Shown here one piece after another: positions 19,001 to 63,059 of a stretch of DNA of 64,000 bases (position 1 is the stretch's first letter; the number at the start of each line of letters is the position of its first letter). Both the position numbers and the translations under genes were made by a program. The stretch covers positions 99,820,001 through 99,884,000 of the forward strand of contig OX597824.1 of assembly GCA_951406725.2 (NCBI GenBank). The letters run 5' to 3'. Under the pieces are notes generated by a model. It ran no database searches. It worked only from the letters and a program-made list of their open reading frames with translations, and was not told the DNA's origin. This DNA is from Octopus vulgaris (lineage: Eukaryota).

Positions 19001-20106
19001 CAACTTGAAAAAACAGTTGTAATGCACCAACTTGCATGTAGTGCTGTTAGTAACCCCCACTAAAATTTTTGTTAAGAGAAAATTACTTGAGGTTGTCGAT
19101 TCGTTTGTCTGCCTTGGAAACTTGATACAGAAATACACCTTCGAATTCAAAAGACAGTAAAAGCATTTGCTGGCTTTGAGTCACATGTATGGTGCCAGAG
19201 ACATATAAATAAGAATACAAAGCTGGCTCTTTACAAATCATTTGTCTTACCATCCCTGTTGTATTCTTGTGAAACAAGGACTTGTTATGAAAAGCATTTT
19301 AAATTGTTAGAACAATTCCACTAAAAATGCTTTCATTGCATTTTAAACATTAAATGGAGTTCTTTTACTCCAAACACAGATGTCCTTGCATCTGCAGGCA
19401 TCACCTCAATTAAAGCTATGATTTTGAGGAACCAAATGAGATGGTATGGCCATATTGTTTGAATGGCGAAAGAACGCATGCCGAAACAACTGTTTTATGG
19501 TAAGCTTGCAGAGAGGAAATGCTATTGGCGTAAACCTAAAAAAAAAGGTTTAAGGACGGCATAAGGACTACTATGAAGTCGCTTGGAATGGTTCCAGAAG
19601 ATATAGAAACCCTTGCTTCGGATCGAAGTGGATGGCAAACAAAAGTGTGGAGTGGAGTGAAAGCGTTTGAAGAGGCCAGGATAACACAAGTAAGACTCAA
19701 AAGACATCTAAGGAAGAATGTAACAATCGAGAAGGTGAATGATAATAACGTTTTTGTATGCACAGTCTGTGACAGACCATGCCTGTCTTTAGCTGGCCTC
19801 AAATCTCATTTGCAAACCCATGGAAAGCGAACCTCCACCAACTATTCTGCCTATATGACTGTACACACCTTTGAATGCAGTGTATGCCAGAAGGTTCACA
19901 AATCTAACGGAGACCTCAAAAGACATTTTAAGATCCACAAAGATCAGAACTTATCTGCAGCTCTTGGTGGTCCAAATCGGATATGCAATCTATGTGGGTG
20001 TCTTTTCAGAACATTGTCTGGTTTAAAAAGCCACATCAAATGCCATGATAGTGCAAAGGAGTAGGTACAGGATGTGGTCAAACTTTGCATAAGGAGTAAA
20101 CAACCA

Positions 20107-20808: not shown

Positions 20809-20940
20809 TTAAAACGCCATAGCAGCTTTCATGATATGTGTAATTAACTTAAAGAGATCTGACCAAGCTTCTTCAACTTCCAGGGACCAGTGGTCACCAA
20901 CTTCAGGTTTGATAGCCAGAATGAACTGAGGACCAATTAA
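20809..20940 (-). CDS. Globin-X-like globin, last coding exon (helices G-H)
   Basis: Acceptor tttctgttacag; LIGPQFILAIKPEVGDHWSLEVEEAWSDLFKLITHIMKAAMAF*; phase 0 (G7.0 intron). Confidence 0.93.
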   Translation of the reverse strand, partial: LIGPQFILAIKPEVGDHWSLEVEEAWSDLFKLITHIMKAAMAF

Positions 20941-22055: not shown

Positions 22056-22281
22056 ATCAATGTAATCCACTTTAGCATTGTACATGACATGTCGGGCGCC
22101 AAGATTCTTGAGCATATCTTCGAGTCTCCTTGGTTCATTTATACGGGCAAGACATTTCTCAACTGTCCCCATTACCCGAAGAGCATGAGAGATTAAACGT
22201 GAGTTCTGCTTCATATCTTCTGCTGCCAGACCACGAAATGGCATGAACACATCTTGAACGTCTGGATGGGTCTCAAAAAGA
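22056..22281 (-). CDS. Globin-X-like globin, central exon (B12.2 to G7.0)
   Basis: Acceptor ttttttcag; AA|T join gives MFMNLFETHPDVQDVF (Pro C2, Phe CD1), SHALRVM (distal His E7), LGARHVMY (proximal His F8). Donor GAT|gtaagt. Confidence 0.95.
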
Positions 22282-25199: not shown

Positions 25200-27390
25200 C
25201 TGGTTGTAGTGTCATAGTTTCTTGTTGACATCTTTTCTTGTCTTTCCATTTCTCCTCTCTCCCTCTGTCACACCTTTGTGTTCCCTCTTCTATGGTGCGT
25301 CGCCAATCTCCACGGTTTCTGGCAACTGCTTCCCAGTTGGTAATATTGATGTTTGCAGGCCTTCATGTCTCTTTTGCAGATATCCTTGTACCATAAGAAC
25401 AGTCTTCCAACAGACCTAGTGCCCCTAGCAAACTCTCCGTTGAGTATGTCCTGGGGATTCTGCCATCTTCCATACGGCTAACATGTCCAAGCCATCTCAT
25501 ACGTCTTTGTGTGAGGAGTGCAAACATGCTTGGTATTCCTGCTTGCTTGAGGACATCTTTGTTGGGGACATGATTCTGCCATTTGGCACAAAGGATTTTC
25601 CGGAGACAGTGCAGGTGAAAGATATTTAGGCAACGCTCTTGGCGTGTGTATGGTGTTCAGGTCTCACTTCCATACAGTAGAGTGCTAAGTACACATGCCT
25701 GGTAAATCTTCACTTTTGTAGTCTTGGTCAGCTTATTGTTGTCCCATGCCCATTTGGAGAGTTGGGTCATCACAGCAGCTGCCTTGCCAATGCATATATT
25801 GAGCTCGGCATCAAGGGATAGGTTGTAGGTGATGGTAGAGCCAAGGTAGGTAAACTTCTCTACCTCCTGTAGTCTGTGGTTTCCAATATGTATGTCTGGG
25901 ATGTCTGATGTAGCCTGACTCATGATGTTGGTCTTCTTGAGGCTGATAAATAAGCCAAAATCACCACATGCTTGCTCAAAACAGTTGATGAGCCTTTGCA
26001 GGGCTTCTTCTAAGTGTGATACCAGAGTTGCATCATCAGCAAATAGCATCTCCTTGATCAGGACACTTCTGATTAAGGTCTTGGCATGCAGATGCATGAG
26101 ATTGAAGTTTCCTGTCACTTCTACTGTGCAGAAACACTCCATCATCTGATGTATCAAAGGCATGTGACAGCAGCAGCAGCAAGAAGAAGATGCCAAATAA
26201 TGTAGGAGCAAGGACACAGCCTTCCTTTACCCCATTCTTTATTTGGAAGGTGGCTGATGTTGAACCATTGTGCTGTATGGTGCCTTGCATATTATCATGG
26301 AAAGAATCGATGATCCTCAGCAACTGTAGTGAACATCTGATTTTTGAAGCAAGATAAAGAGGCCTTTTCTACTGACCAAGTCAAAGGCCTTTGTCAGATC
26401 AATGAAGGCCATATATAATGGCATTTTCTGCTCTCTGGACTTCTCCTAAAGTTGGCGTATGGAAAGTATCTTCTAAAGCCACACTACGATTCTGGATAAA
26501 TTCGAGAAGCAAGCAGTTGTAGCCTGGGCAGGATTATGTAGGCAAAGGTCTTTTCAACAGTGCTGAGAAGAGATTCCACGGTAATTGTTGCAATCACCAC
26601 GGTCACCTTTATTTTTGTAAAGCGTGATGATGTTAACATCCTGCATATCCTGAGGGACTGTACCCTCTTCCCAGCACTGACACAGAACCTCATGAAGGTG
26701 CCAAAGCAGGGTGGTGTTTTTACTGGCTTTGATGATCTCTTAGGGGATACCATCTTTTACCGGTGCCTTGCCACTGGCTAGGGACTCAATAGCTTTGGTG
26801 AGCTCTGCTATGGATGGCAAATTGTCAAGTTCGCACATGGCCGGCAAGATCTTGACACTCTTGATTGCAGCTTCAGTGACCGTGGTCTCCTGTGAGTAGA
26901 GATCCTGGTAGTACTCCACCCACCTATCCATTTGCTTGCTTTGGTCTTTGATGAGATCTCCAGTAATTGATTTTAGAGAAGCTGACTTGGTTGCAGATGG
27001 ACTGAAGGCCTTCTTCAAACCGGCATACATCCCACAGGTGTTGCCACTGTCAGCAGCTGACTGGATACTCTGCAAATTTCCTGCCAACACCTATTTGCAC
27101 AGCGTCTGGCAGTCAGTTGGGTTTTACTTCTTGCTTTTCTAAGTTCTTTGAGTGTTTTTGTAGAAGAATCACTCTTGTATTGCATCAGAGCTGCACACTT
27201 TGCTTCAATAACTGGTTCCAACCCTGTGAGTCCAACTCTGAACCAATTTGGGTTATACTTTTCACTCATGCCAAAAGTATCTATTGATGTGGTATACAAA
27301 GCTTCCAGGATATAATTCCACCTACTTTCAACAGAGGAGGATGGGCAGCTGCTGAGGGCAGCCTTAATAGAAACAGCAAAACGTTGCTGG
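25200..27390 (-). mobile_element. 5'-truncated RTE LINE (separate family) in the globin intron
   Basis: KAPVKDGIP, GVKEGCVLAPTLF, MLFADD and FTYLGS motifs across frameshifted ORFs. Confidence 0.9.
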
Positions 27391-27750: not shown

Positions 27751-29025
27751 GAGTGAAGCAAAGAGACCTTGATGCATCCACCCTCTTTGCAATATATTTT
27801 GCTGTTGTGTTGTCACATGCTTTTCAAAACTCTGAGGAGGATATTTACATAAAATATCGAACAACAATCTCTTGTATCTGCATTTGACTTACCTTGTGAT
27901 GATTTTGGCTTGACTACCAACTTGAAAAAACAGTTGTAATGCACCAACTTGCATGTAGTGCTGTTAGTAACCCCCACTAAAATTTTTGTTAAGAGAAAAT
28001 TACTTGAGGTTGTCGATTCGTTTGTCTGCCTTGGAAACTTGATACAGAAATACACCTTCGAATTCAAAAGACAGTAAAAGCATTTGCTGGCTTTGAGTCA
28101 CATGTATGGTGCCAGAGACATATAAATAAGAATACAAAGCTGGCTCTTTACAAATCATTTGTCTTACCATCCCTGTTGTATTCTTGTGAAACAAGGACTT
28201 GTTATGAAAAGCATTTTAAATTGTTAGAACAATTCCACTAAAAATGCTTTCATTGCATTTTAAACATTAAATGGAGTTCTTTTACTCCAAACACAGATGT
28301 CCTTGCATCTGCAGGCATCACCTCAATTAAAGCTATGATTTTGAGGAACCAAATGAGATGGTGTGGCCATATTGTTTGAATGGCGAAAGAACGCATGCCG
28401 AAACAACTGTTTTATGGTAAGCTTGCAGAGAGGAAATGCTATTGGCGTAAACCTAAAAAAAGGTTTAAGGACGGCATAAGGGTTACTACGAAGTCACTTG
28501 GAATGATTCCAGAAGACATGGGTACCCTTGCTTCGGATCGAAGTGGATGGCAAACAAAAGTGTGGAGTGGAGTGAAAGCGTTTGAAGAGGCCAGGATAAC
28601 ACAAGTAAGACTCAAAAGACATCTAAGGAAGAATGTAACAATCGAGAAGGTGAATGATAATAACGTTTTTGTATGCACAGTCTGTGACAGACCATGCCTG
28701 TCTTTAGCTGGCCTCAAATCTCATTTGCAAACCCATGGAAAGCGAACCTCCACCAACTATTCTGCCTATATGACTGTACACACCTTTGAATGCAGTGTAT
28801 GCCAGAAGGTTCACAAATCTAACGGAGACCTCAAAAGACATTTTAAGATCCACAAAGATCAGAACTTATCTGCAGCTCTTGGTGGTCCAAATCGGATATG
28901 CAATCTATGTGGGTGTCTTTTTAGAACATTGTCTGGTTTAAAAAGCCACATCAGATACAATGATGGCGTTAAGGTGTAGGTACAGGAAGTGGTCAAACTT
29001 TGCATAAGGAGTAAACAACCACCAT
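27751..29025 (+). mobile_element. 3' part of the C2H2-finger RTE LINE, near-identical to 18834-20110
   Basis: Colinear 1.28-kb match; ORF 28380..28979 has three C2H2 fingers; ends CAACCACCAT+(ACAT)n. Confidence 0.92.
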
Positions 29026-32407: not shown

Positions 32408-32637
32408 TTCATGAACATCACAACACCAACTCTGGTCATGTTGCACTGGACTATTTTCCATGTTTCTAGAACGAGTTCCTTTTGTTTGTCAGTAATGTAA
32501 TTTGCCACATTATTGCTCTCAGACAAGCCATAACTGGCCTCACTAATAACAACTGAGTGACTTGGTTCAGATGGTTGCACTTTGCTTGACACTTTTCTCT
32601 GTTTCAACTTCCGATTCTTTGAATAATCGCTGCCCAT
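32408..32637 (-). CDS. Globin-X-like globin, first coding exon (N-terminal extension, helices A-B)
   Basis: MGSDYSKNRKLKQRK...ITDKQKELVLETWKIV...VGVVMFM; donor AA|gtaagt, phase 2 (B12.2). Exons sum to 230+226+132=588 nt (195 aa). Confidence 0.92.
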
Positions 32638-33850: not shown

Positions 33851-36034
33851 AAGCAGCCCTTTTTAGGATGGCACTGCTTTCCTCTTCATGGGGAGGGGGT
33901 CTATAAAAAATGACCTAAACATTGCTTACTTGCTCTTGTCTCTGTCATCAGGTGCAGATGTCTGGGCATCCAATATTGCACCCAAATCAAAAGTAGAAAG
34001 AAAATACATGGAACAAATATGTTCATTGCGTCTTGGAATGTGAGAACACTCCAAGATAACAAAAAGAACCCTGAATGAAGAACCACTATCATAGCACATG
34101 TGTTGAAGCATCATAAAATTGGTATTGCAGCTCTTTCCGAAACCAGGTTTGCTGATACGGGACAGTTAGAGGAAGTTGAAGGTGGGTACACTTTCTATTG
34201 GATAGGAAAAGCAAGATCTGAGAAACGTGAATCTGGTGTTGGTTTTGCCATCAGAAGTGATATTGCCAAAAATCTTGACTCTCTGCCTGTTGGTATAAAT
34301 GACAGACTTATGTTCTTGCGCGTTGCGGTAGGAAAAGACAAATATGCCACATTTTTTAGTTGCTAAGCACCTACACTTAATTCATCTGATGAGCTAAAAG
34401 AAAGTTTTTACTCCTCTTTACGTGAACAGATTAACAAGGTGTCGATTCAAGATAAGCTGTTTGTCTTAGGTGACTTCAATGCTCGTGTAGGTAGTGATAC
34501 ACAATCTTCGAGCAATGTCATTGGTTCACACGGAATTGGTAAAGTCAACTCAAACAGTGTTCTTTTATTGTCTCTTTGCAGTGAGTTTGAGCTTTTGCTC
34601 ACTTTCAGCTACCTAATTGCAAGAAAGCCAGTTGGAAGCATCCCCGGTCTAATCATTATCATCTCATTGACTATGTCATTGTATGTCGTTCTGATAGACA
34701 AGATGTAACTCTTACATGCTCTTACAGTATAGGGAAATGTTGGTCAGATCACAAATTGATCTGCTCCACAATCAAGATGAAAATCAAATGCCCTGTTTGA
34801 AATCAACATAGTTCTCTCATCAAGAGAATTGATGTGGACAAGTTGAAGGTTAAGGAGACCATGCACTCGTTTCAAACGGTTACTGACGAAAAGCTGTCCT
34901 CCATTATATGTGGGAATGACATTGAGGCATCTTGGTCAGAGTTTAAAACTGCAGTGTATGACTCTGCCAAAGAGTCATTAGGTTATGTTCGAAGGAAGAA
35001 CCAAGATTGGTTTGATGAAAATGATCCAACCATCCTCCCTTTGCTCAGAAACATGCATCAAACCCATCAAGTGTGGATTACTGACAAAAATTCTTCAGTG
35101 AAACACAAGGCTTTTCGAATGTCCAAAAAGTTGGCACAATCTTGACTCCGGGAAATGAAACAAAACTGGTGGAAGTTGAAAGCCCAGTCCTTACAAGATG
35201 CAGCAGATAAGTGCGATTTTAAATCTTTCTACCAAAATGTCAAAGGTGTCTTTGGTCCCATTTCAAAGGGGGCCTCTCCAATATTTTTGTCAGATGGCAC
35301 TCTCCTCACCGATATGAAAGAGATTACTAAGCGCTGGGCTGAACATTTTTCAAATGTTTTAAACAGAGAATCGACAGTGGATCAGGAAGTGATTGATAAT
35401 CTTCCTCAGAAGCCAACCATCGAGAATCTTGCTGACAGTCCATCCATGTCGGAGGTCGAAAAGGCTATAAAGCAATTGTCAAATCGTAAGGCTTAAGATA
35501 CAAATGCGGTGGTCTGGTCATCTCGTAAGAATGGATGACTCAAGAGTTCCAAAGCAGCTTTTTTATGGGCAATTGACAAATTCTTCCTGTCCAACAGGGT
35601 GTCCTCTTCTTCGTTACAAGGACAAACTAAAAGACAATCTGAAGCGTTGTGACATTGCTCTGAGCTCCTGGGAGAGTGCAGCAGGGGATCGCAGCAAATG
35701 GAGGAAAATGTGTTTTCTAAAGACTAGAGAATTTGAAAGTAACTGCCTTCATCATAGGGACGCCCTTTGTGCAAATTTGAAAGCAACGCATCAGCAAAAT
35801 CCACCAAACAATGATTGTGTGTGTCACTGTGGGTTCCAAGCACGAAGCAAAGCTGGGTTAGCTGTCCACCTGAGAAGACATTTTGAACCAACAAATACAT
35901 GCAGGTGTACCATTTGCGAGAAAGTGTGCAAGACATCTGCTGGATTGAAGGTACACATGCGGTGTCACAGGGCTTAGGAATTGTTGAAGGTTATTTAATG
36001 AACCCTCATTCATCGTCTTCGATGAGAGAATCCA

Positions 36035-36569: not shown

Positions 36570-36920
36570 AACTGTATCCTGTTTAGGAAACCAGCCAAGC
36601 AGAACGACAAGTTTTACCACGGAAGAAAAACGTCATCAATTTTTTAGCGAATCGAAATTAGATCTGACCCATAATTGTATCCTGTTAGGTGGCTAGTTTG
36701 ACCACGGAAGAAAAACGTCATCAATTTTTTAGCGAATCAAAGTCAGATCTGACCCATAATTGTATCCTGGTTAGTTTGACCACGGAAGAAAAACGTCATC
36801 AATTTTTTAACGAATCAGAATTAGACCTAACCCATAACTGTATCTTGTAGGGAAACCAATCAAGCTTGACTACTGAGGTAAAACGTCATCAATTTTTTGA
36901 CTAATCAAAATCAGATCTGT
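36570..36920. repeat. Tandem minisatellite, 4 units of about 78-90 bp
   Basis: ACCACGGAAGAAAAACGTCATCAATTTTT starts at 36616, 36701 and 36779, with a degenerate copy at 36869. Confidence 0.9.
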
Positions 36921-37608
36921 TCACAGAGAAAAAAAATTCTTTTTATAAATTTTTCCTTCCCTAAGACATACCACTGCCAGCGGGAGTGACTGTTTAAGGA
37001 TCTGAGAAATTGTAATTGCCCCCACCTCCACTATTTTAATTCTCTCACTGTGGCCGTAGTAACAGTGACCACATATATATATATACATATCATATATACA
37101 CATACACACACATACATACATACATATACACATACATATATATAGTAGAATAATAAAAAGTGGTTCTTGGTGCAGTATAATATATTTGAAATATAGATAT
37201 ATATATACATACATGTACATATATATACATACATATATATGTACATGCATATATATATGTATCTGTGTCACCTTACTGGCACTTGTGCTGGTGGCACATG
37301 AAAAAACATTCGAGCAAGGTCGTTGCCAGTGCAGCTGGACTGGCTCCTGTGCAGGTGGCACATAAAAAGCACCATTTGAGCGTGGTCATTGCCAGTACCA
37401 CCTGACTGGCCTTCATGCCGGTGGCATGTAAAAGCACCCACTACACTCTCGGAGTGGTTGGTGTTAGGAAGGGCATCCAGCTGTAGAAACTCTGCCAGAT
37501 CAGATTGGATCCTGGTGCAGTCATCTGGTTCGCCAGATGTCAGTCAAATCATCCAACCCATGCTAGCATGGAAAGCGGACGTTAAACGATGATGATGATT
37601 ATAATGAT

Positions 37609-37644
<36 letters not shown>

Positions 37645-37647
<3 letters not shown>

Positions 37648-38224
37648 TAAGTAATTAAGAGTTTAGCAACGATTTGCCTCACCACACACCGAATTTAGAA
37701 ATAGCAGTCAAAGAGTTATAGCTATTCTTTCTACTAAAGGGGAGATCTCAGTAAAACCACAGCACTTGAAAGGCAAACACAGACAGGCAAGAGAGAAAGA
37801 AATGACGGCAATCTATCATACAATTTTAAGTCACCTACGGACGTCATCATCATCATCATCATCATCGTTTAGCGTCCGCTTTCCATGCTAGCATGGGTTG
37901 GACGTACGTTTCGAAATTAAGTTTTAGGAAAGCATAAGAATTAGATAATTATGTCTTACCCAACTTTTTTTCTCATCAGCGTAGGACACTACAATTATGA
38001 ATAATTGTATATTAAAGATCTCCCTTTTAGTAGAAAGAATAGCTATAACTCTTTGACTGCTATTTCTAAATTCAGTGTGTGGTGAGGCAAATTGTTGCTA
38101 AACCCTTAATTACTTAGTATTACTTAAACTTTCCTCGAATGAGGCTTTTACATGCCGAAATCTACTTGGTGAAATTAATGATTATTCCAAATTAATTAAT
38201 TTCACCCTATATTATTACTGATAA

Positions 38225-38229
<5 letters not shown>
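37645..38229. mobile_element. Non-autonomous element with 104-bp inverted repeats enclosing a hammerhead (Penelope pLTR/retrozyme-like)
   Basis: 37645-37748 is the reverse complement of 38016-38119 with few mismatches; (TA)n on both flanks; no ORF. Confidence 0.65.
37834..37985 (-). ncRNA. Type I hammerhead ribozyme interrupted by a LINE 3' tail
   Basis: Minus strand CCUACG-CUGAUGA-G[long helix II]C-GAAAC-GUAC-GUC-[insert]-CGUAGG. Canonical core, 6-bp helix I, palindromic helix III; the insert at 37845-37899 is flanked by duplicated GGACGT. Confidence 0.8.
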
Positions 38230-38280
<51 letters not shown>

Positions 38281-38519
38281 TCATCATCATCATCATCGTT
38301 TAACGTCCGTTCTCCATGCTAGCATGGGTTGGACGGTTTGACCGGGGATCTGGGAAGCCAGAAGGCTGCACCAGGCTCCAGTCTTATCTGGCAATGTTTC
38401 TACAGCTGGATGCCCTTCCTAACGCCAACCACTCCGTGAGTGTAGTGGGTGCTTTTTACGTGCCACCTGCACAGGTGCCAGGCGAGGCTGGCAACGGCCA
38501 CGGTCGGATTGGTACACAC

Positions 38520-47666: not shown

Positions 47667-50600
47667 ATCATCATCATCATTGTTTAGTGTCCGTTTTCCG
47701 TGCTAGCACAGGTTGGACGGTTCAACTGGGGTCTGGGAAGCCAGGAGGCTGTACCAGGCTCCAGTCTAATCTGACAGTGTTTCTACAGCTGGATGCCCTT
47801 CCTAACGCCAACCACTCCGTGAGTGTAGTGGGTGCTTTTTACGTGCCACCAGCACAGGTGCCAGGGGAGGCTGGCAGCAGCCACAATCGGATGGTGCTTT
47901 TTACGTGCCACTGGCACGGAAGCCAGTCAAGGCAGAGCTGGCATCGGCCACGTTCGGATGGTGCTTTTTACGTGCCACCAGCACAGGTATCACAACTACT
48001 ATTTCCATTTGATATTTCGATGTTCATGTACTTGACTCAATAGGTCTCCTCAAGCACAGCAGGTCATTCTGCAATCCAAGGTACTTTGAATGGGCTGGGG
48101 CTATGCGAAACTGGTGCAGGAAACAGCCCTGGTCTTTGCAGTCACAGCATATCTCCAGAGATCTCGGTCCTTCATCATTGTCTCTGTGAGGCCCAACGCT
48201 CGGAGGTCATGCTTGACTACCTCGTCCCATGTCTTCCTGGGTCTACCTGTCCCCCTGATACCTTCAACAGTTTGGGAGCGACACTTCTTCACACATCTCT
48301 CCTCATCCATCTGCAGTACATGACCATACCATCGCAAGCATCTCTCTTGCACACCACATCTGATGCTTCTTATGTCCAGCATTTCTCTCAGGGTGCTTAC
48401 ACTCTGTCATGCGTGCACACTGACATTACACATCCAGCGGATCATGTTAGCTTCATTTCTTTCAAGTCTATGCATGTCCTCTGCAGTCACAGCCCAGTTT
48501 TCACTACCGTGAAGCATGGCGGTTTGCATACATGCATCATACAATCTACCTTTCACTCTGAGTGGAGACCCTTTGTCGCCAGTAGGGGTAGGAGCTTTCT
48601 AAACTTTGCCCAGGCTATTCGTATTCTAGTGGTGACACTCTCTGAGCATCCACCTCCACTACTAACTTGGTCACCTAGGTAGCGGAAACTATCAACTACT
48701 TCTAGTTTCTCCCCTGGAGTGTGAGGGAATCTGTTTTCTGAGTATCTGTGGTATCTATTGTCCCTGTGCATCTGCCGCACATGAAAGCTATCTTATCAGT
48801 TAATTTCCCTTTGATGTTGCTGCACCTCTTATGCGTCCATAGCTTACACTGGGTACATCTTATGGAGTTTCTACCTACACCTTTCCTACAGATCGAGCAG
48901 GGCTACCTGCCCGAGGGGGTGTGTGATGAGTTCGCCTTTCTGCTTACTATAACTTTGGTCTTTGCTACATTTACTCTAAGGCCCTTTGATTCTAAACCTT
49001 GCTTCCACACCTGAAATTTCTTTTCTAGTTCCGGTAGTGATTCTGCTATGAGGGCCAGGTTATCAGCATAGAGAAGCTCCCAGGGGCAACCTGTTTTGAA
49101 TTCCTCTGTTATTGCCTGGAGGACTATGATGAATAAAAAGGGACTGAGGGCTGAACCTTGGTGGACACCTACTTCTACCTGGAATTCTTCACTATACTCA
49201 CTGCCAATCCTAACCTTGCTGACAGCCTCTCTGTATAGGGCCTGTACAGCCCTTATTAGCCATTCGTCAATCTCCAGTTTCCGCATTGACCACCAGATAA
49301 GGGATCGGGGGACTCTGTCAAAGGCTTTCTCCAAGTCCACGAAAGCTGTGTAGAGGGGTTTATCTTTAGCTAGGTATTTCTCCTGCAGTTGTCGAACCAG
49401 GAATATGGCATCAGTAGTGCTTCTACCCAGCACAAAACCGAACTGCATCTCATCTAAGCAAACTCTCTCCCGAATGAGATGGGTTATGACCCTCTCTGTG
49501 ACCTTCATCACCTGATCCAACAGTTTAATACCCCTGTAGTTATTTCTATCTAGAGCATCACCTTTACCCTTGCAGCAGTTGACTATGGTGCTGCTACGCC
49601 AGTCATTGGGTATGACTCCATTATGAACTACCTGGTTTACAATGCGGGTGACTAGGACATAGCCCACACCACCAGATGTTTTAAGCATCTCAGCAGTGAT
49701 TCCTGATGGGCCGGGGGCTTTACCTGGTTTCATACCCTTAATTGCCTTAACTACTAGGGAGCTGTCTATTCAGATAGCTGGTCCCTCTACTGGGTCAACA
49801 TTTGGCAGGCCCTCTTCCTCCCATTCATTCTCCACATTCAGCAGTCTCTCATAATGGCTTCTCCAAGCCTTTTTCTTTTTAGAAACATTGAAAGCAAGTG
49901 CACCATCATCCATGCGGACGCATTTCTCTCCTGTGACATCACTATTTTCTCTCACACACTGTCCAGCAATCCGAAATACCTCAGTTCTTTGGTCCTCACG
50001 TCGCTGGGTATTGGCAAACTTCTTTTCTGCTTCATCTTTGGCTATGTATACCTGCTGCCCAGCCTCCCTTTTGGCTACCTGGTACAGTTCCATGCTACCC
50101 CCATCCCTCCAGGCTTTACAGGCCTGTTTCTTTGCTCTAATAGCTTTATCTACTGTACTATTCCACCACCACGTAACTCTAGGTCTGGAAGCGACTTTGC
50201 ACCATCCGCAGACTTGGTCTGTGGCACTCAGCAAGCTGTCCTGTAGGAATTTCCAGCTACCTTCTATGTTCGACGTCTGTAGCTCCTCCTCCCTCTCATC
50301 AAATTTCTTGATGAGGATGTCCCTAAATCTCTGACCATGTGAAGGGTTCTTTAGCTTCCAAATCCTTCTTTTCTGGATTGGTCTGTTTCTTGGTATCCTG
50401 GCCTCAAGCCTAAAGTCACTAATGATTATCCTATGCTGAGGGGTACATTCTTCACCCGGGTGGGTCTTTGTATTTAAGAGCAATCCTGCATCCTGCTGTC
50501 TATTTGGCTAGCGGATTCCTCTGACTGATAGGTTATGAGGTGGCAGTCTGGCTTCCTGAAGTTAGTGTTGCAGATTAAAAGGTTACATGCATCATAGAAA

Positions 50601-52364
50601 TCCAGTGGTCTAGTTCCCTTATCATTTCTGGTGCCAATACTATAGCCACTATGTACCCCAGTGAAGATACCCGATTCCTGCCCAACATGCCCATTAAAGT
50701 CTCCAGCCACAAAGATGAGGTCTTGCCACCCGTCTTTGAGGTAGCCTGTAGAAGGGTATCATAAAAGTGGTCCTTCTGATCATTTGGTAGCCCAACATGT
50801 GGAGCATAGGCAGAGATAATCGTAGCTGTGCTGTTCTGTAGGACTAACCTGAGCTTGAGCACTCTATCGCAAACCCTGACAACCTCTATGACCTTATCCA
50901 CCCATTTCTCCACAAGGAGAATGCCTACACCCCCTACACCATCCATGTTACCTTGCCAGAAGACTTTATATCTATGTGCCTTGCCCGTGAGGACCCTAGC
51001 TGAAGCACCTCTCCATCTTACCTCTTGTATGCAGTATACATCAACCTGTCTTCTTTCAAGCATTTCTACAATCTCACTAGATCTATCTTTCAGTGTACCA
51101 ACATTGACAGTGCCAACTCTGAAAACTGGGAAGGTAATGTGGGGTGAGGTTTGAGGAGGAGGAGGGATGCAATTCAGCGCCTGAAAAGAAGAGGGTTGTT
51201 GTGGTGATCGTTTTTTAGGCATTTTTCATCTGTTCTCTCTTCCGACCTGACAACATTCAAGCATTTAGGCATGTTAAAGTTGTGGTCCCTGCTGTAGGCA
51301 GGAGCTGGTGTTAGCAGCGTTGTAAGCATAAGCATTAAGGTCATTGATGATGTAGATGTAAGTTGTGTGGCAGAAATACTGATATTCCAGGTGTTAGTAA
51401 CATTCTAAGCAAGCATTATAGTCATTGAGTGACTTAGTTTTAAGCAGCGTAGCAGAGACATGGATATTCCAGTGTTGGGTGGGGGGTTCAGCTGAAAACT
51501 GGTTGCATTGCGGCGGGGAAGGGTTCCGGCAGAGAGAAGAGAGATAGAGAGAGGGAGAGAAAGTGGGGGAAGAATGGAGGAGAGAGAGTGCAGGTAATAT
51601 AGGGAACAGCACCAGTGAAGAGGGCGAGTTAGGAGAAGCGATAACAGGTAGGGGTGGTGGCAGCTTCTAGACAATGAAACGTAGGATATCATGAGTGAGG
51701 GAGGAGACTGGAAAAGGAGATAACCGGTTGAGGTGGTGACAGATTTCAAAACGGAAAGAAACGTAAGATAACTGGTTAAGTGGGACGGTTGATGAGCAGC
51801 TGCGCTAGCTGCATCCGTCATAGGGAAGAGAATCAAGGGTAATACATAGTGAGTACATAGTGAAATAGCATATTGAGGAGGAGGGGTTGGAAGAATAGAC
51901 ACATGTAATGGTGGTGGGAGAAGGGATATCCGGTGTAGATGGTGTAAATATAGAGATATCCAGTATTGGTGGTGGGGGTGGGAAAGGGCTGGCACACCGT
52001 GAATGGCGAAGTTTTGATTCGGAACAGAGCGGGAGATACATGGAACTAGGAATGAGAAGAATTAAGCAATCGGGGTTTGATAGGGGACAGTACAAATTAT
52101 GGGAAATAAGAATGTGAACTGAACGAGGAGGAACGAATAATAGAGAAACGAACAAATTATCATCATACAGAGACGAATAATTATCATAATAAGCTTTACG
52201 AGATAGGACTAAAATGAAAAAATTATATTTGGGGGGACAATATCAACAGTTAGCTCATGAAAAAACAAACAGTTAGTAAATAGATAATACATTTTAAGTG
52301 TTAGTGGCGAATGTAGTACAAGGAGTCGAAAGAAATGAAATGAGTAATTCTTAGCTCGCTTTGG
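47667..52364 (-). mobile_element. Full-length RTE-clade LINE (about 4.7 kb) nested in the Gypsy integrase
   Basis: About 1.1-kb 5' leader; APE (VGTVNVG, CIQEVRW, GDFNGHVG, PQHR); RT (KAPGPSG, NYRGI, DLEKAFD, HQGS, YADN); PHD-like Cys cluster; (ATG)n tail. The integrase frame DNGTVFRSE|VLGEM rejoins across it with only AC shared. Confidence 0.93.
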
Positions 52365-58749: not shown

Positions 58750-60135
58750 ATATAAATGTGAGTCATGGGCCCTGAGTGCAGGGGACATATGAAGACTAGA
58801 GAGGTACGAAGCTAGTATTCTCCACTGGATGTGCAAAGTTAGTGTGCATGTGTGACAAAGTACTAATGTATTGAGAAAAAAGTTAGGTATTAGAGGAATC
58901 CAGGTGAGGACAGTTGCATAAAGTAATGATGATCACTTAAAGTGGATAGAACTTGTGGAAGAGGGAGACCTAAGAAGACAAGGGCTGCAGTATTGAAGGA
59001 AAATCTCGAGATGCTGAGCATTATGGAGGAGATGACAAAGAACTGAGATGACTGACAATCTGCTGAAGTCGAGAGGACTTGTCTATCACAATGAATAATG
59101 ATATTCTAAAATCAATTAGTATGCTTGTATGTATGGGGCCCTGATCCATCAAGCATTCCCCCCAATTCTCATCCTGCAACACTTATCACTTCCCTATCTG
59201 CAGTACCACTTGGCTGCTGTAATCAACTGAGAGGGATCCTCTGGACCTTAACAAAAGAATTCAAGACTGGCTGCCCCTGGGAGCTCTGTTTCACTGATGA
59301 CCTTGTTCTTACAGCTGAATCACTACCTGACCTGGAGAAGAAATTTCAGGTGTGGAAACAAGGCCTGGAATCTAAGGGCCTTAGAGTTAATTTAGCAAAA
59401 ACTAAAGTCTTAGTAAGTAAGAAAACAGGTAAATCACAAGTCCCTTCGAGGAGATGGCCCTGCTCAATATGTAAGATGGGTGTTGTACCCATTGCAAGCT
59501 TTGGACACATAAAAGTTGTAGTGGTATCACAGGGCAGTGAAACATGGACTTTGACTACAGAGAACTTGTGAAGGTTTGAAAGAAATGAAGCTAGCATGCT
59601 CCATTGGATGGGTAATGTCAGTGTGCATGCATTGACTGGGTGTATGGAGTATGAGATGGTGTGTGCAAGAAAGAAGACTGCACTGGTTTGGTCATAGGAT
59701 GTGTATAGATGAGAACAGCTGTATAAAGAAGTGTCAATCTCTAATTGTGGAAGGGGTAGACCCAGGAATATGTGGAACAAATTGGTGAGAAAGGATCTTC
59801 AGATGCTGGGCCTCACTGAGGAAATGATAAGGGACCAAGTGTTGTGGCAATTTGCTGTACTTGAGAGATACATCAAGCTAAGTTAAGTCACTGTCATCCA
59901 TACGAACAGGCTTGACCTTCATAGGTGCCAGGGTTACATGAAATGCACTTGTGCTGGTGATCTATGCCAGTGGCACGTGAAAAGCACCCAGCACACTCTG
60001 TGAAGTGGGTGGGTGTCATTAGGAGAGTATCCAGACCATGCTACAACAGATAACTGGAGTCTGGCCAGCTCCTGTCAAACCGTCCAACCCATGCCAGCAT
60101 AGAAAACGGTTGTTAAATGATGATGATAGTGATGA
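58750..60135 (+). mobile_element. Degraded RTE LINE 3' fragments in a RhoGEF intron
   Basis: EFKTGCPWEL.FTDDL...GLRVNLAKTK, RGRPR.WN and a 3' tail ending (GAT)n. Confidence 0.8.
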
Positions 60136-61659: not shown

Positions 61660-62800
61660 TTGTTGAGGATGTTGGTGCAATCTCACTTTAGTTGCTGGGT
61701 CTTAATCACAGCGTATCTCCAAAGGTCCCAGTCTCCTGTTATTGCCTCTGTGAGACCCAATGTTCGAAGGTTGTGCTTCACTACCTCATCCCATGTCTTC
61801 CTGGGTCTACCTCTTCTACAGGTTCCTTCTACAGTTAGAGAATCGCACTTCTTCACACAGCTGTCTTCATTCATACATAACACATGACCATACCAGTGCA
61901 GTCACCTCTCTTGCACACCACATTTGATGCTTCGTATGCCCAACTTTTCTCTGAGGGTGCTTACACTCTGTATGCACACTGACATTACACATCCAGTGGA
62001 TCATACTAGCATCCAAGGCCCATGTTTCACTGCCATGTAGCATGGCAATTCGCACACATGCATTGTACAGTCTACCTTTCACCCTGAACGAGAGGCCCTT
62101 AGTTGCCAGCAGAGGTAGGAGCTCCCTGAACTTTGCCTAGGCTATTCTTACTCTAGTCGCTACACTCTCAGAGTAACCACCTCCACTACAGACTTGGTTG
62201 CCTAGGTAGCAGAAGCAAATAACTAATTCTAGTTTTTCCCCCTGGCATATGATGAAATCTATTTTCTGTACATCTTCAGTGTTTATTACCCCAGTGCATC
62301 TACCACACACAAAAACTATTTTCCTGGTTAACCTTCCTTTGATATTGCTGCACCTTTTATGTGTCCATAGCTTACACTGGGTACATCGTATGGAATTTCT
62401 ACCCATGCCTTTTCTACAGATTGAGCAGGGCCATCTATCTGAAGGGGGTTGTGATTTGACAGCCTTCTTACTTACTAAGAGTTTGGTTTTTGCTAGGTTA
62501 ACCCTAAGACCCTTCAATTCTAGACATTGCTTCCACACCCTTAACTTCATCTCCAGTTCTGGCAGGGACTTGGCTATTAGAGCAAGGTCACCTCCCAGGA
62601 GCAGCTTGTTTTGAATTCCTCTGTTATTGCCTGGAGGACGATAATGAATTAAGAGGGGGTTGAGGACTGATCCTTGGTGAACCCCTACTTCTACTCGAAA
62701 TTCTTCACTATACTTGTTGCCAACCCTCACTTTACTGATAGCATCCCTGTACAGGGCTTGTACAGCTCTTACCAGCCACTTGTCTATCCCCAGTTTCCAC
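61660..62800 (-). mobile_element. 5'-truncated RTE LINE (PHD-finger family)
   Basis: ORF 62137..62730 has HQGS and WPCSIC...CTQC...H..C...CGRC; downstream GRPRKTWDEVV. Confidence 0.9.
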
Positions 62801-63059
62801 GTATATATATATAATATGTGTGTGTGTGTTTCTTTTGCATGTATTACCCTACCCCATTGAGATGCTGTTGCTTTTTCAAATTATAGGTTTTTCTCAATAC
62901 TTACACAGTTATACATTAACATTGCTTGCCTAGTAGACCATATACATCTCATTCCTCTGAAGCTACTGAGGTTTCCGGCATATTACATTGTCATAAATAA
63001 TAGTTGAAATTTAACTCTATCAAATGTTGATTTTGATGGTAATTTTTCCAATCTCACAG

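Follow-up and report, generated by a model that had tools for sequence, protein, structure and literature searches.

Features of the locus

The window analyzed here is a 64,000-nt stretch of the Octopus vulgaris contig OX597824.1 (positions 99,820,001 to 99,884,000), and all window positions are counted from its first letter. It contains coding exons of a globin gene and, on the same strand, a copy of a hammerhead-bearing repeat that is interrupted by the 3' tail of a LINE. The elements of the gene, the repeat copy and the interrupted motif, the latter in minus-strand reading order, are as follows:

32410-32637, minus strand: first coding exon of the globin gene, with the ATG at 32637 (tblastn with a globin protein, 96% identity)
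22056-22280, minus strand: second coding exon of the globin gene (PF00042 match)
20812-20937, minus strand: third coding exon of the globin gene
37644-38230, minus strand: 5'-truncated, partly inverted copy of a non-coding hammerhead repeat of about 585 nt, flanked by (TA)n (blastn)
38016-38230, plus strand: inverted 5' piece of this copy, repeat unit positions 96-312 (blastn against the L044 unit)
37980-37985, minus strand: 5' strand of helix I, CCUACG (sequence)
37973-37979, minus strand: catalytic box CUGAUGA, C3 to A9 (sequence)
37913-37972, minus strand: helix II domain of 60 nt, closed by G10.1-C11.1 (predicted fold)
37909-37912, minus strand: GAAA box (sequence)
37902-37909, minus strand: palindrome ACGUACGU of helix III (sequence)
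37901-37903, minus strand: first GUC (sequence)
37845-37899, minus strand: insert, a 55-nt LINE 3' tail consisting of a terminal stem-loop and a (GAT)7 tail (the same tail at 37543-37608 and 38277-38342)
37839-37844, minus strand: second ACGUCC, likely a target-site duplication (sequence; the junction is unique in the genome)
37840-37842, minus strand: second GUC, the sole candidate cleavage site in cis (sequence)
37834-37839, minus strand: 3' strand of helix I, CGUAGG (sequence; pairing probability 0.91-0.99 in the isolated fold)

The best match of the globin gene, with 96% identity across the second exon, is an octopus protein with a globin domain. Its N-terminus is Met-Gly followed by a basic extension, and the mollusc relatives begin with MG or MGC; we take this N-terminus to recall acylated, membrane-bound globins. 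A pyrimidine tract followed by AG is located about 30 nt before the ATG, and a non-coding first exon may lie further upstream, in which case the hammerhead motif would be intronic. The motif is located 5.2 kb upstream of the ATG and has the globin sense, as was originally predicted; a same-sense placement has even odds by chance.

Other repeats are scattered over the window. Two C2H2 zinc-finger ORFs on the plus strand (19540-20064 and 28380-28979) are antisense to the globin gene, one downstream of it and the other in its first coding intron, and are probably the C-termini of another LINE family. Fragments of LINE ORFs encoding reverse transcriptase (RT), endonuclease and PHD finger domains were observed at 48903-51225, 25657-26226 and 62137-62880 on the minus strand and at 59110-59571 on the plus strand, and a decayed LINE was recognized by eye at about 33950-35980. 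Positions 36610-36937 hold four head-to-tail copies of a 75-90-nt unit. In the region 37430-38456, two inverted arms of the hammerhead repeat (105 nt, 96%) are nested inside two oppositely oriented LINE 3' ends of 109 and 66 nt (about 90%). If transcribed, this region would form a long double-stranded RNA, a possible substrate for A-to-I editing.

Structure of the interrupted hammerhead motif

The original prediction described a hammerhead hit at its cleavage site by a LINE tail, and its coordinates and minus-strand order of motif elements all agree with the sequence. GGACGT is present in two copies, at 37839-37844 and 37900-37905; the first of these, ACGUCC at 37844-37839 on the minus strand, holds the second GUC, and the duplication thus spans the cleavage triplet as proposed. 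The 3' strand of helix I is no longer directly 3' of the first GUC (37901-37903), and without helix I this triplet would not be cut in cis.

Intact siblings of the window copy have the characteristic features of type I hammerheads: (i) the CUGANGA and GAAA boxes, (ii) an NUH triplet, and (iii) three helices, of which helix I is open. The same features are found in the present allele if the second GUC is taken as the triplet. As modeled, the interrupted allele is a putative ribozyme whose shape can still be drawn. The pre-insertion form, which had been reconstructed on paper by removing the insert and one copy of the duplication, is real: the intact 19-nt core has 1,085 exact sites in the genome, as compared with zero for a reversed control. 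Neither the Rfam scan of the window at E<=1 nor a scan at E<=10 of four loci with intact copies together with the window's own locus yielded a hammerhead family; both matched only miRNA models on microsatellites. Since Rfam misses the intact copies too, its negative result says nothing about the insert.

Host repeat family

As a blastn reference for the window copy we used a natural 589-nt tandem unit from the locus L044. Unit positions 473-589 map to 38016-37901 and positions 1-201 to 37839-37644, both on the minus strand. This sense part carries one hammerhead, which is interrupted, and falls short of a full, multimer-competent unit. The inverted piece that covers unit positions 96-312 explains the 105-nt inverted arms of the copy (37644-37748 and 38016-38120, 96% complementary). 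An interpretation of these arms as those of a MITE was rejected, as they lie inside the repeat unit and the points of inversion differ from copy to copy. Over 196 nt, the window copy and its closest siblings have 98-99% identity, which argues that it is young.

With the 117 nt located 5' of the insert as a query, the best 40 of 1,372 genome candidates match at 99-100%. Among the 30 best-matching loci, two of which (L022 and L023) represent one locus, the core CUGAUGA/GAAA/GUC is followed by the exact helix I strand in 26 cases and by a strand with one change in 3 cases; the remaining locus is the window itself with its insert. The core proposed from the single interrupted copy is therefore that of the family. 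Members of the family occur alone and truncated, as dimers, or in arrays that reach six units, with a tandem period of 583-591 nt. Dimers with the canonical core were found in L019 and L021, and arrays of 3-6 units with a CCGAUGA variant of the catalytic box in L042 and L044-L046. No coding ORF of at least 200 aa was found in the repeat unit. Inspection by eye placed the 3' end next to a TA run in 23 of 30 copies; six copies were unmatched by the anchors and one continues in tandem. An inverted 5' piece is frequent among family copies.

Two variants of the family were observed in passing. The CCGAUGA subfamily, with U4C in the catalytic box (L042:5518-8560, L044:3592-6044, L045, L046, L037 and L040), forms the longest tandem arrays seen, whose units are 97-100% identical. 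Either this variant still cleaves, or the amplification proceeds without need of cleavage. At L035:1430-1600, two diverged copies meet head to head inside helix II; the result is a long palindrome in which both catalytic boxes are lost.

The hammerhead fold was further assessed by the alignment of 20 distinct family copies. Standard pairs occupy 95.7% of the pair cells, compared to 25-46% for slid controls; for helix I alone, the pairing is standard in 99.2% of the cells. Compensatory changes from A-U to G-C were found in 2 of the 20 pairs, both in helix II, and three pairs of helix I are changed on one side only. The 20 rows are close kin that were picked by the helix III motif, so that the invariance of helix III is no evidence for its pairing. 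The covariation in these sequences thus gives modest support to the fold.

Comparison of the octopus repeat with known hammerhead-bearing elements revealed the following common features. With the non-LTR retrozymes of animals, as described in the available text of PMC7229834 and of the preprint by Li, Clavereau & Pollet 2026 (10.64898/2026.07.22.740005), it shares (i) non-coding tandem units with one type I hammerhead each, (ii) low G+C content, (iii) multimers ranging from monomers to hexamers, (iv) a short palindromic helix III, and (v) co-occurrence with autonomous Penelope-like elements. The unit of about 585 nt falls inside the range of 51-972 bp given in the 2026 preprint and is longer than the 170-400-nt units reported as assayed by Cervera & de la Pena 2020 (PMC7229834). 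The octopus family differs from these retrozymes by its 60-nt helix II domain, and the window copy in addition by being truncated and interrupted. With the hammerheads of the Penelope pseudo-LTRs, as presented in the available text of Cervera & de la Pena 2014 (PMC4209133), the family shares the type I topology, the G10.1-C11.1 pair and the palindromic 15.2-16.2 segment. By the same account, it differs from them in a helix I of 6 bp rather than 4-5 bp, in the lack of an extra nucleotide between A9 and G10.1, and in the absence of an RT/GIY-YIG ORF from the unit. The helix III of the family consists of 2 bp and a tetraloop, therefore its hammerhead is not 'minimal' in the sense in which that paper uses the term.

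The integration pattern also follows the Penelope type, with 5' truncation, partial tandems, an inverted 5' copy and microsatellite targets. The description of Penelope-like insertions in the available text of Craig et al. 2021 (bioRxiv 10.1101/2021.04.23.441226) likewise includes partial tandems and, at the 5' end, a copy that is inverted and 5'-truncated. The feature characteristic of retrozymes, two or more consecutive non-coding hammerhead units, is present in the family, and to judge from these sequences it behaves as a non-LTR retrozyme, i.e. a non-autonomous Penelope-like element. The original assignment of the motif is thus supported: the hammerhead is of type I, its helix III is short and palindromic, and the repeat that carries it is of the Penelope type. 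Among the papers listed in a search of the literature on octopus and cephalopod hammerheads, none reports such a family, and the main text of the 2026 preprint (10.64898/2026.07.22.740005) names neither octopus nor cephalopod.

Autonomous Penelope-like elements

Full-length autonomous Penelope-like elements were observed at L117:1583-6350 and L116:1577-6300. The 984-aa ORF of L117 is located between two hammerheads, at 1583 and 6233, and in Atlas it clusters with HTH_animal / GIY-YIG; Pfam did not recognize this ORF. The RT and GIY-YIG ORF between hammerhead pseudo-LTRs, which marks autonomous elements, is a feature of the L117 family and is absent from the retrozyme unit. The hammerheads of the autonomous family have the same dimensions as those of the retrozyme (a 6-bp helix I, a 60-nt helix II domain and an 8-nt helix III segment) and are also of type I; they carry a GUA triplet and are unrelated to the retrozyme hammerhead in sequence.

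Close GIY-YIG matches were collected by scoring the best 150 of 18,261 candidates. A retrozyme copy lies beside GIY-YIG in one of 30 loci, namely the query locus. The GIY-YIG fragment beside a family copy in L053 was rejected as a direct autonomous parent, as comparison of the retrozyme with the 29 other GIY-YIG loci revealed no common sequence apart from one AT-rich 63-nt match. No sequence homology was found between the retrozyme unit and the examined autonomous family. The mobilizing partner is thus inferred, and the retrozyme is likely moved by Penelope-like elements.

Origin of the insert

The original prediction identified the insert as the extreme 3' end of a resident RTE family. Positions 37845-37899 do correspond to the last 55 nt of a LINE, the long copies of which lead into an ORF with an APE endonuclease and RT. 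The ORF in L114 contains the Exo_endo_phos, RVT_1 and PHD domains, and the 3' tail of the element is (GAT)n. A single APE and RT ORF with a microsatellite 3' tail is an RTE-type architecture, and the LINE fits an RTE-like element, a label that follows from this architecture and from the naming in the original prediction. RTE-2_OV of octopus is described with a C2H2 finger in the available text of Petrosino et al. 2022 (PMC9115989), as opposed to the PHD-type finger that follows the RT in the present LINE; judging from these domains, the two are probably different families.

A 22-mer of the tail has at least 45,433 exact matches in the genome. In 23 of 30 tail copies, the LINE itself has CGTCC immediately 5' of the segment that was inserted, and one subfamily has TACGTCC there (22 of the first 30 among 182 matches). 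This makes the 5' joint a microhomology of 5-7 nt, located at the foot of the terminal stem-loop, and at least five of the six duplicated bases are also LINE sequence. Of the 30 sampled TACGTCC-tails, eight lack adjoining LINE sequence on the upstream side, and one of these resembles an internal deletion; truncation at the foot of the stem-loop thus recurs away from hammerheads. Tail-only copies starting from this foot were noted in L122, L126, L127, L129, L132, L133 and L146, which suggests either that truncation favors this point or that these copies form a class of very short, SINE-like elements. No target-site duplications were detected for the 30 TACGTCC-tails, and short, mostly doubtful matches were seen in 14 of 30 other LINE copies; the ACGTCC duplication at the present insertion is exact.

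In its short 3' fragment, microsatellite tail, short duplication and shared bases at the 5' joint, the insert resembles 5'-truncated LINE insertions, which arise by target-primed reverse transcription with 5' microhomology. In our judgment, the locus probably reflects a chance insertion of a LINE 3' tail into a truncated copy of a high-copy hammerhead repeat, and the putative ribozyme left behind is predicted to be no better than a lone intact copy. The proposed course of events includes three steps: (i) a copy of the repeat would have integrated into a (TA)n run with 5' inversion, in the Penelope-type manner; (ii) the LINE endonuclease would later have nicked the palindrome in its middle, ACGT|ACGT, with reverse transcription covering 55 nt, up to the foot of the LINE terminal stem-loop; and (iii) the cDNA would have been joined to the target via the common CGTCC, whereby ACGTCC was duplicated.

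Alternatively, the tail could have been captured while the retrozyme RNA was reverse transcribed, the template switching to the LINE 3' end and returning via CGUCC. The chimera would have integrated in one step, and the duplication would then not be a genomic target-site duplication. The sequence is equally compatible with this course, the duplication falls on the ribozyme junction, the present LINE seldom leaves clear duplications, and the window copy is itself a rearranged (inverted) integration. However, two switches would be needed, the first of them 5 nt beyond the cleavage site and not at it, and this LINE has left two further tails no more than 450 nt from the motif, so that the region readily takes genomic insertions, which makes a template jump a rather improbable source of the insert. 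Ligation of a LINE fragment into the cleaved ribozyme at the RNA level was rejected as a sole cause, as it would leave no ACGUC duplication.

Search for further insertions

The junction between the insert and the hammerhead occurs once in the genome. A (GAT)n tail located no more than 14 nt from the helix I strand was found three times in the same orientation, in the window and in two plain microsatellites, and once in the opposite orientation, at a site outside the family. The candidates L047, L048 and L148 were rejected as further insertions, being plain microsatellites outside the family. Recurrent LINE insertion at the cleavage site, a prospect raised with the original prediction, was thus not borne out beyond the window in either orientation; these searches used exact anchors of 10-12 nt and 15-nt windows, and diverged cases could be missed. 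Two control windows placed elsewhere in the unit contained zero insertions each, and one insertion against none is compatible with chance without being a proof of it.

Given 1,085 sites and 45,433 tails, windows of 6 and 15 nt would be expected to contain 0.05 and 0.13 insertions by chance, respectively, on the presumption that all LINE copies are younger than the repeat and with exact matches only. The estimate is too high insofar as some tails predate the repeat, and too low insofar as it leaves out diverged tails and further hammerhead families. A single insertion in a whole-genome scan is uncommon but unremarkable. It is highly improbable that the LINE is drawn to hammerhead cleavage sites by their sequence or RNA ends and that the locus represents one case of a targeted process. 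Such targeting would account for the difference between the site and the control windows, and CGTCC is common to the target and the LINE terminal stem; nevertheless, a minimum of 45,433 tails and as many as 1,085 intact sites have yielded a single case, no second one was found in either orientation within the limits of exact anchors and 15-nt windows, and tail-only copies occur at unrelated sites. A literature search on insertions of LINEs or other elements that disrupt hammerheads gave nothing relevant among the matches listed, and a search on 5' microhomology gave no matches.

Predicted folding of the interrupted allele

In the interrupted allele, the duplicated ACGU would pair with the first ACGU and form a 4-bp helix III, half of the 8-bp helix formed by tandem units of the family, that closes a 60-nt loop. 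ACGU is self-complementary, and the duplication by itself gives such a helix, so that no selection is needed to explain it. The original prediction went further and proposed that this helix, together with the LINE's own hairpin, may preserve or improve self-cleavage. We estimated the cost of the active fold as the ensemble energy with and without the enforced fold (ViennaRNA); only the relative values are meaningful, as nearest-neighbor energies omit the catalytic core and the contacts between loops I and II and give no cleavage rate.

For isolated motifs, the cost is 3.77 kcal/mol for the present allele and 3.72 for the intact monomer L004. In the natural tandem dimer L019 with the 8-bp helix III, it is 0.6 for one core and 1.42 for both. 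The 300 shuffled inserts have a mean cost of 4.05 (sd 2.02), and 47% of them cost no more than the present allele, which indicates that the LINE hairpin adds nothing measurable. When helices I and II are imposed and the core is kept open, the probability of the closing pair of helix III is 0.105 for the present allele, 0.162 for the intact monomer and 0.887 for the dimer; the median for the shuffled inserts is 0.22, and 64% of the 300 reach the observed value.

The cost also depends on the length of the transcript. The present allele has costs of 3.8, 4.4, 5.6, 9.7, 5.8, 13.4 and 8.8 kcal/mol when the transcript ends 10, 30, 60, 90, 120, 160 and 195 nt past the site, respectively; the sibling medians are 3.9, 4.1, 4.4, 4.5, 4.2, 8.1 and 5.1. 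The comparison covers 26 of 29 sibling loci, as L002, L013 and L014 were dropped for lack of an exact motif. The allele is worse than all 26 siblings at 90, 160 and 195 nt and lies inside their range at the other four of the seven lengths. In short transcripts (10-30 nt past the site), it is at the level of the intact monomer, and the model thus allows possible co-transcriptional cleavage at the monomer level. In longer transcripts, the downstream repeat sequence pairs with the insert at a cost of 8-10 kcal/mol, and the (GAT)n tail competes for the second ACGU.

Cleavage has been reported for related hammerheads. According to the available text of PMC7229834, an axolotl monomer whose helix III has 2 bp and a tetraloop, a form it terms similar to the invertebrate hammerheads, was cleaved to 22% within 1 h, and single repeats from coral and mussel have rates of about 0.8 and 0.1 per min, respectively. 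For dimers of Xenopus, the accessible part of the 2026 preprint (bioRxiv 10.64898/2026.07.22.740005) reports cleavage in one of nine. The premise of the original prediction that such hammerheads cleave as dimers is therefore weaker than stated, since the family has this form of helix III and monomers do cleave according to PMC7229834.

Against these data, it is unlikely that the insertion rebuilt a better monomer, in which the 4-bp helix III and the loop-shortening LINE hairpin would lead to faster cis cleavage at the second GUC. The core nucleotides, helix I and helix II are all intact, and a constrained fold accommodates both the 4-bp helix III and the hairpin of the LINE, as had been claimed, so that the rebuilt form is geometrically allowed; the hairpin is also the dominant fold of the insert (z = -1.98). 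A helix III added to a single Penelope hammerhead results in detectable, weak cleavage, mostly at non-physiological Mg2+, in the available account of PMC4209133. Nonetheless, no gain over the intact monomer was computed, shuffled inserts matched or surpassed the allele on both measures at the frequencies given above, the tail and the downstream repeat interfere with the fold, and the allele is single-copy. Thus, of the proposal to 'preserve or improve', weak preservation of self-cleavage is possible in the model and improvement is unsupported, and the suggestion that the LINE hairpin helps the monomer failed against the shuffled inserts. Under the chance insertion of a LINE tail, which we continue to favor, the second GUC would be cut slowly at best.

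Biological meaning of the locus

The interrupted allele is single-copy and shows no sign of use or selection; most likely it is a dead end. That the duplication created an efficient single-copy ribozyme acting on a globin pre-mRNA started upstream of the motif is very unlikely. If true, a transposon hammerhead would have become a host regulatory ribozyme in a single natural step, and cleavage of the allele as an efficient monomer in a globin transcript would mean that a six-base duplication can re-wire helix III. As matters stand, the interrupted allele means little: tails of this LINE occur at a density of one per 62 kb or less, and insertions nested within one another are common in such a genome.

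The host repeat is of modest value in its own right, as a young retrozyme family with more than 1,000 copies in an octopod genome. Together with the autonomous Penelope-like family, which has hammerheads of equal dimensions and different sequence, this retrozyme may provide a pair for studying how retrozymes borrow Penelope enzymes.
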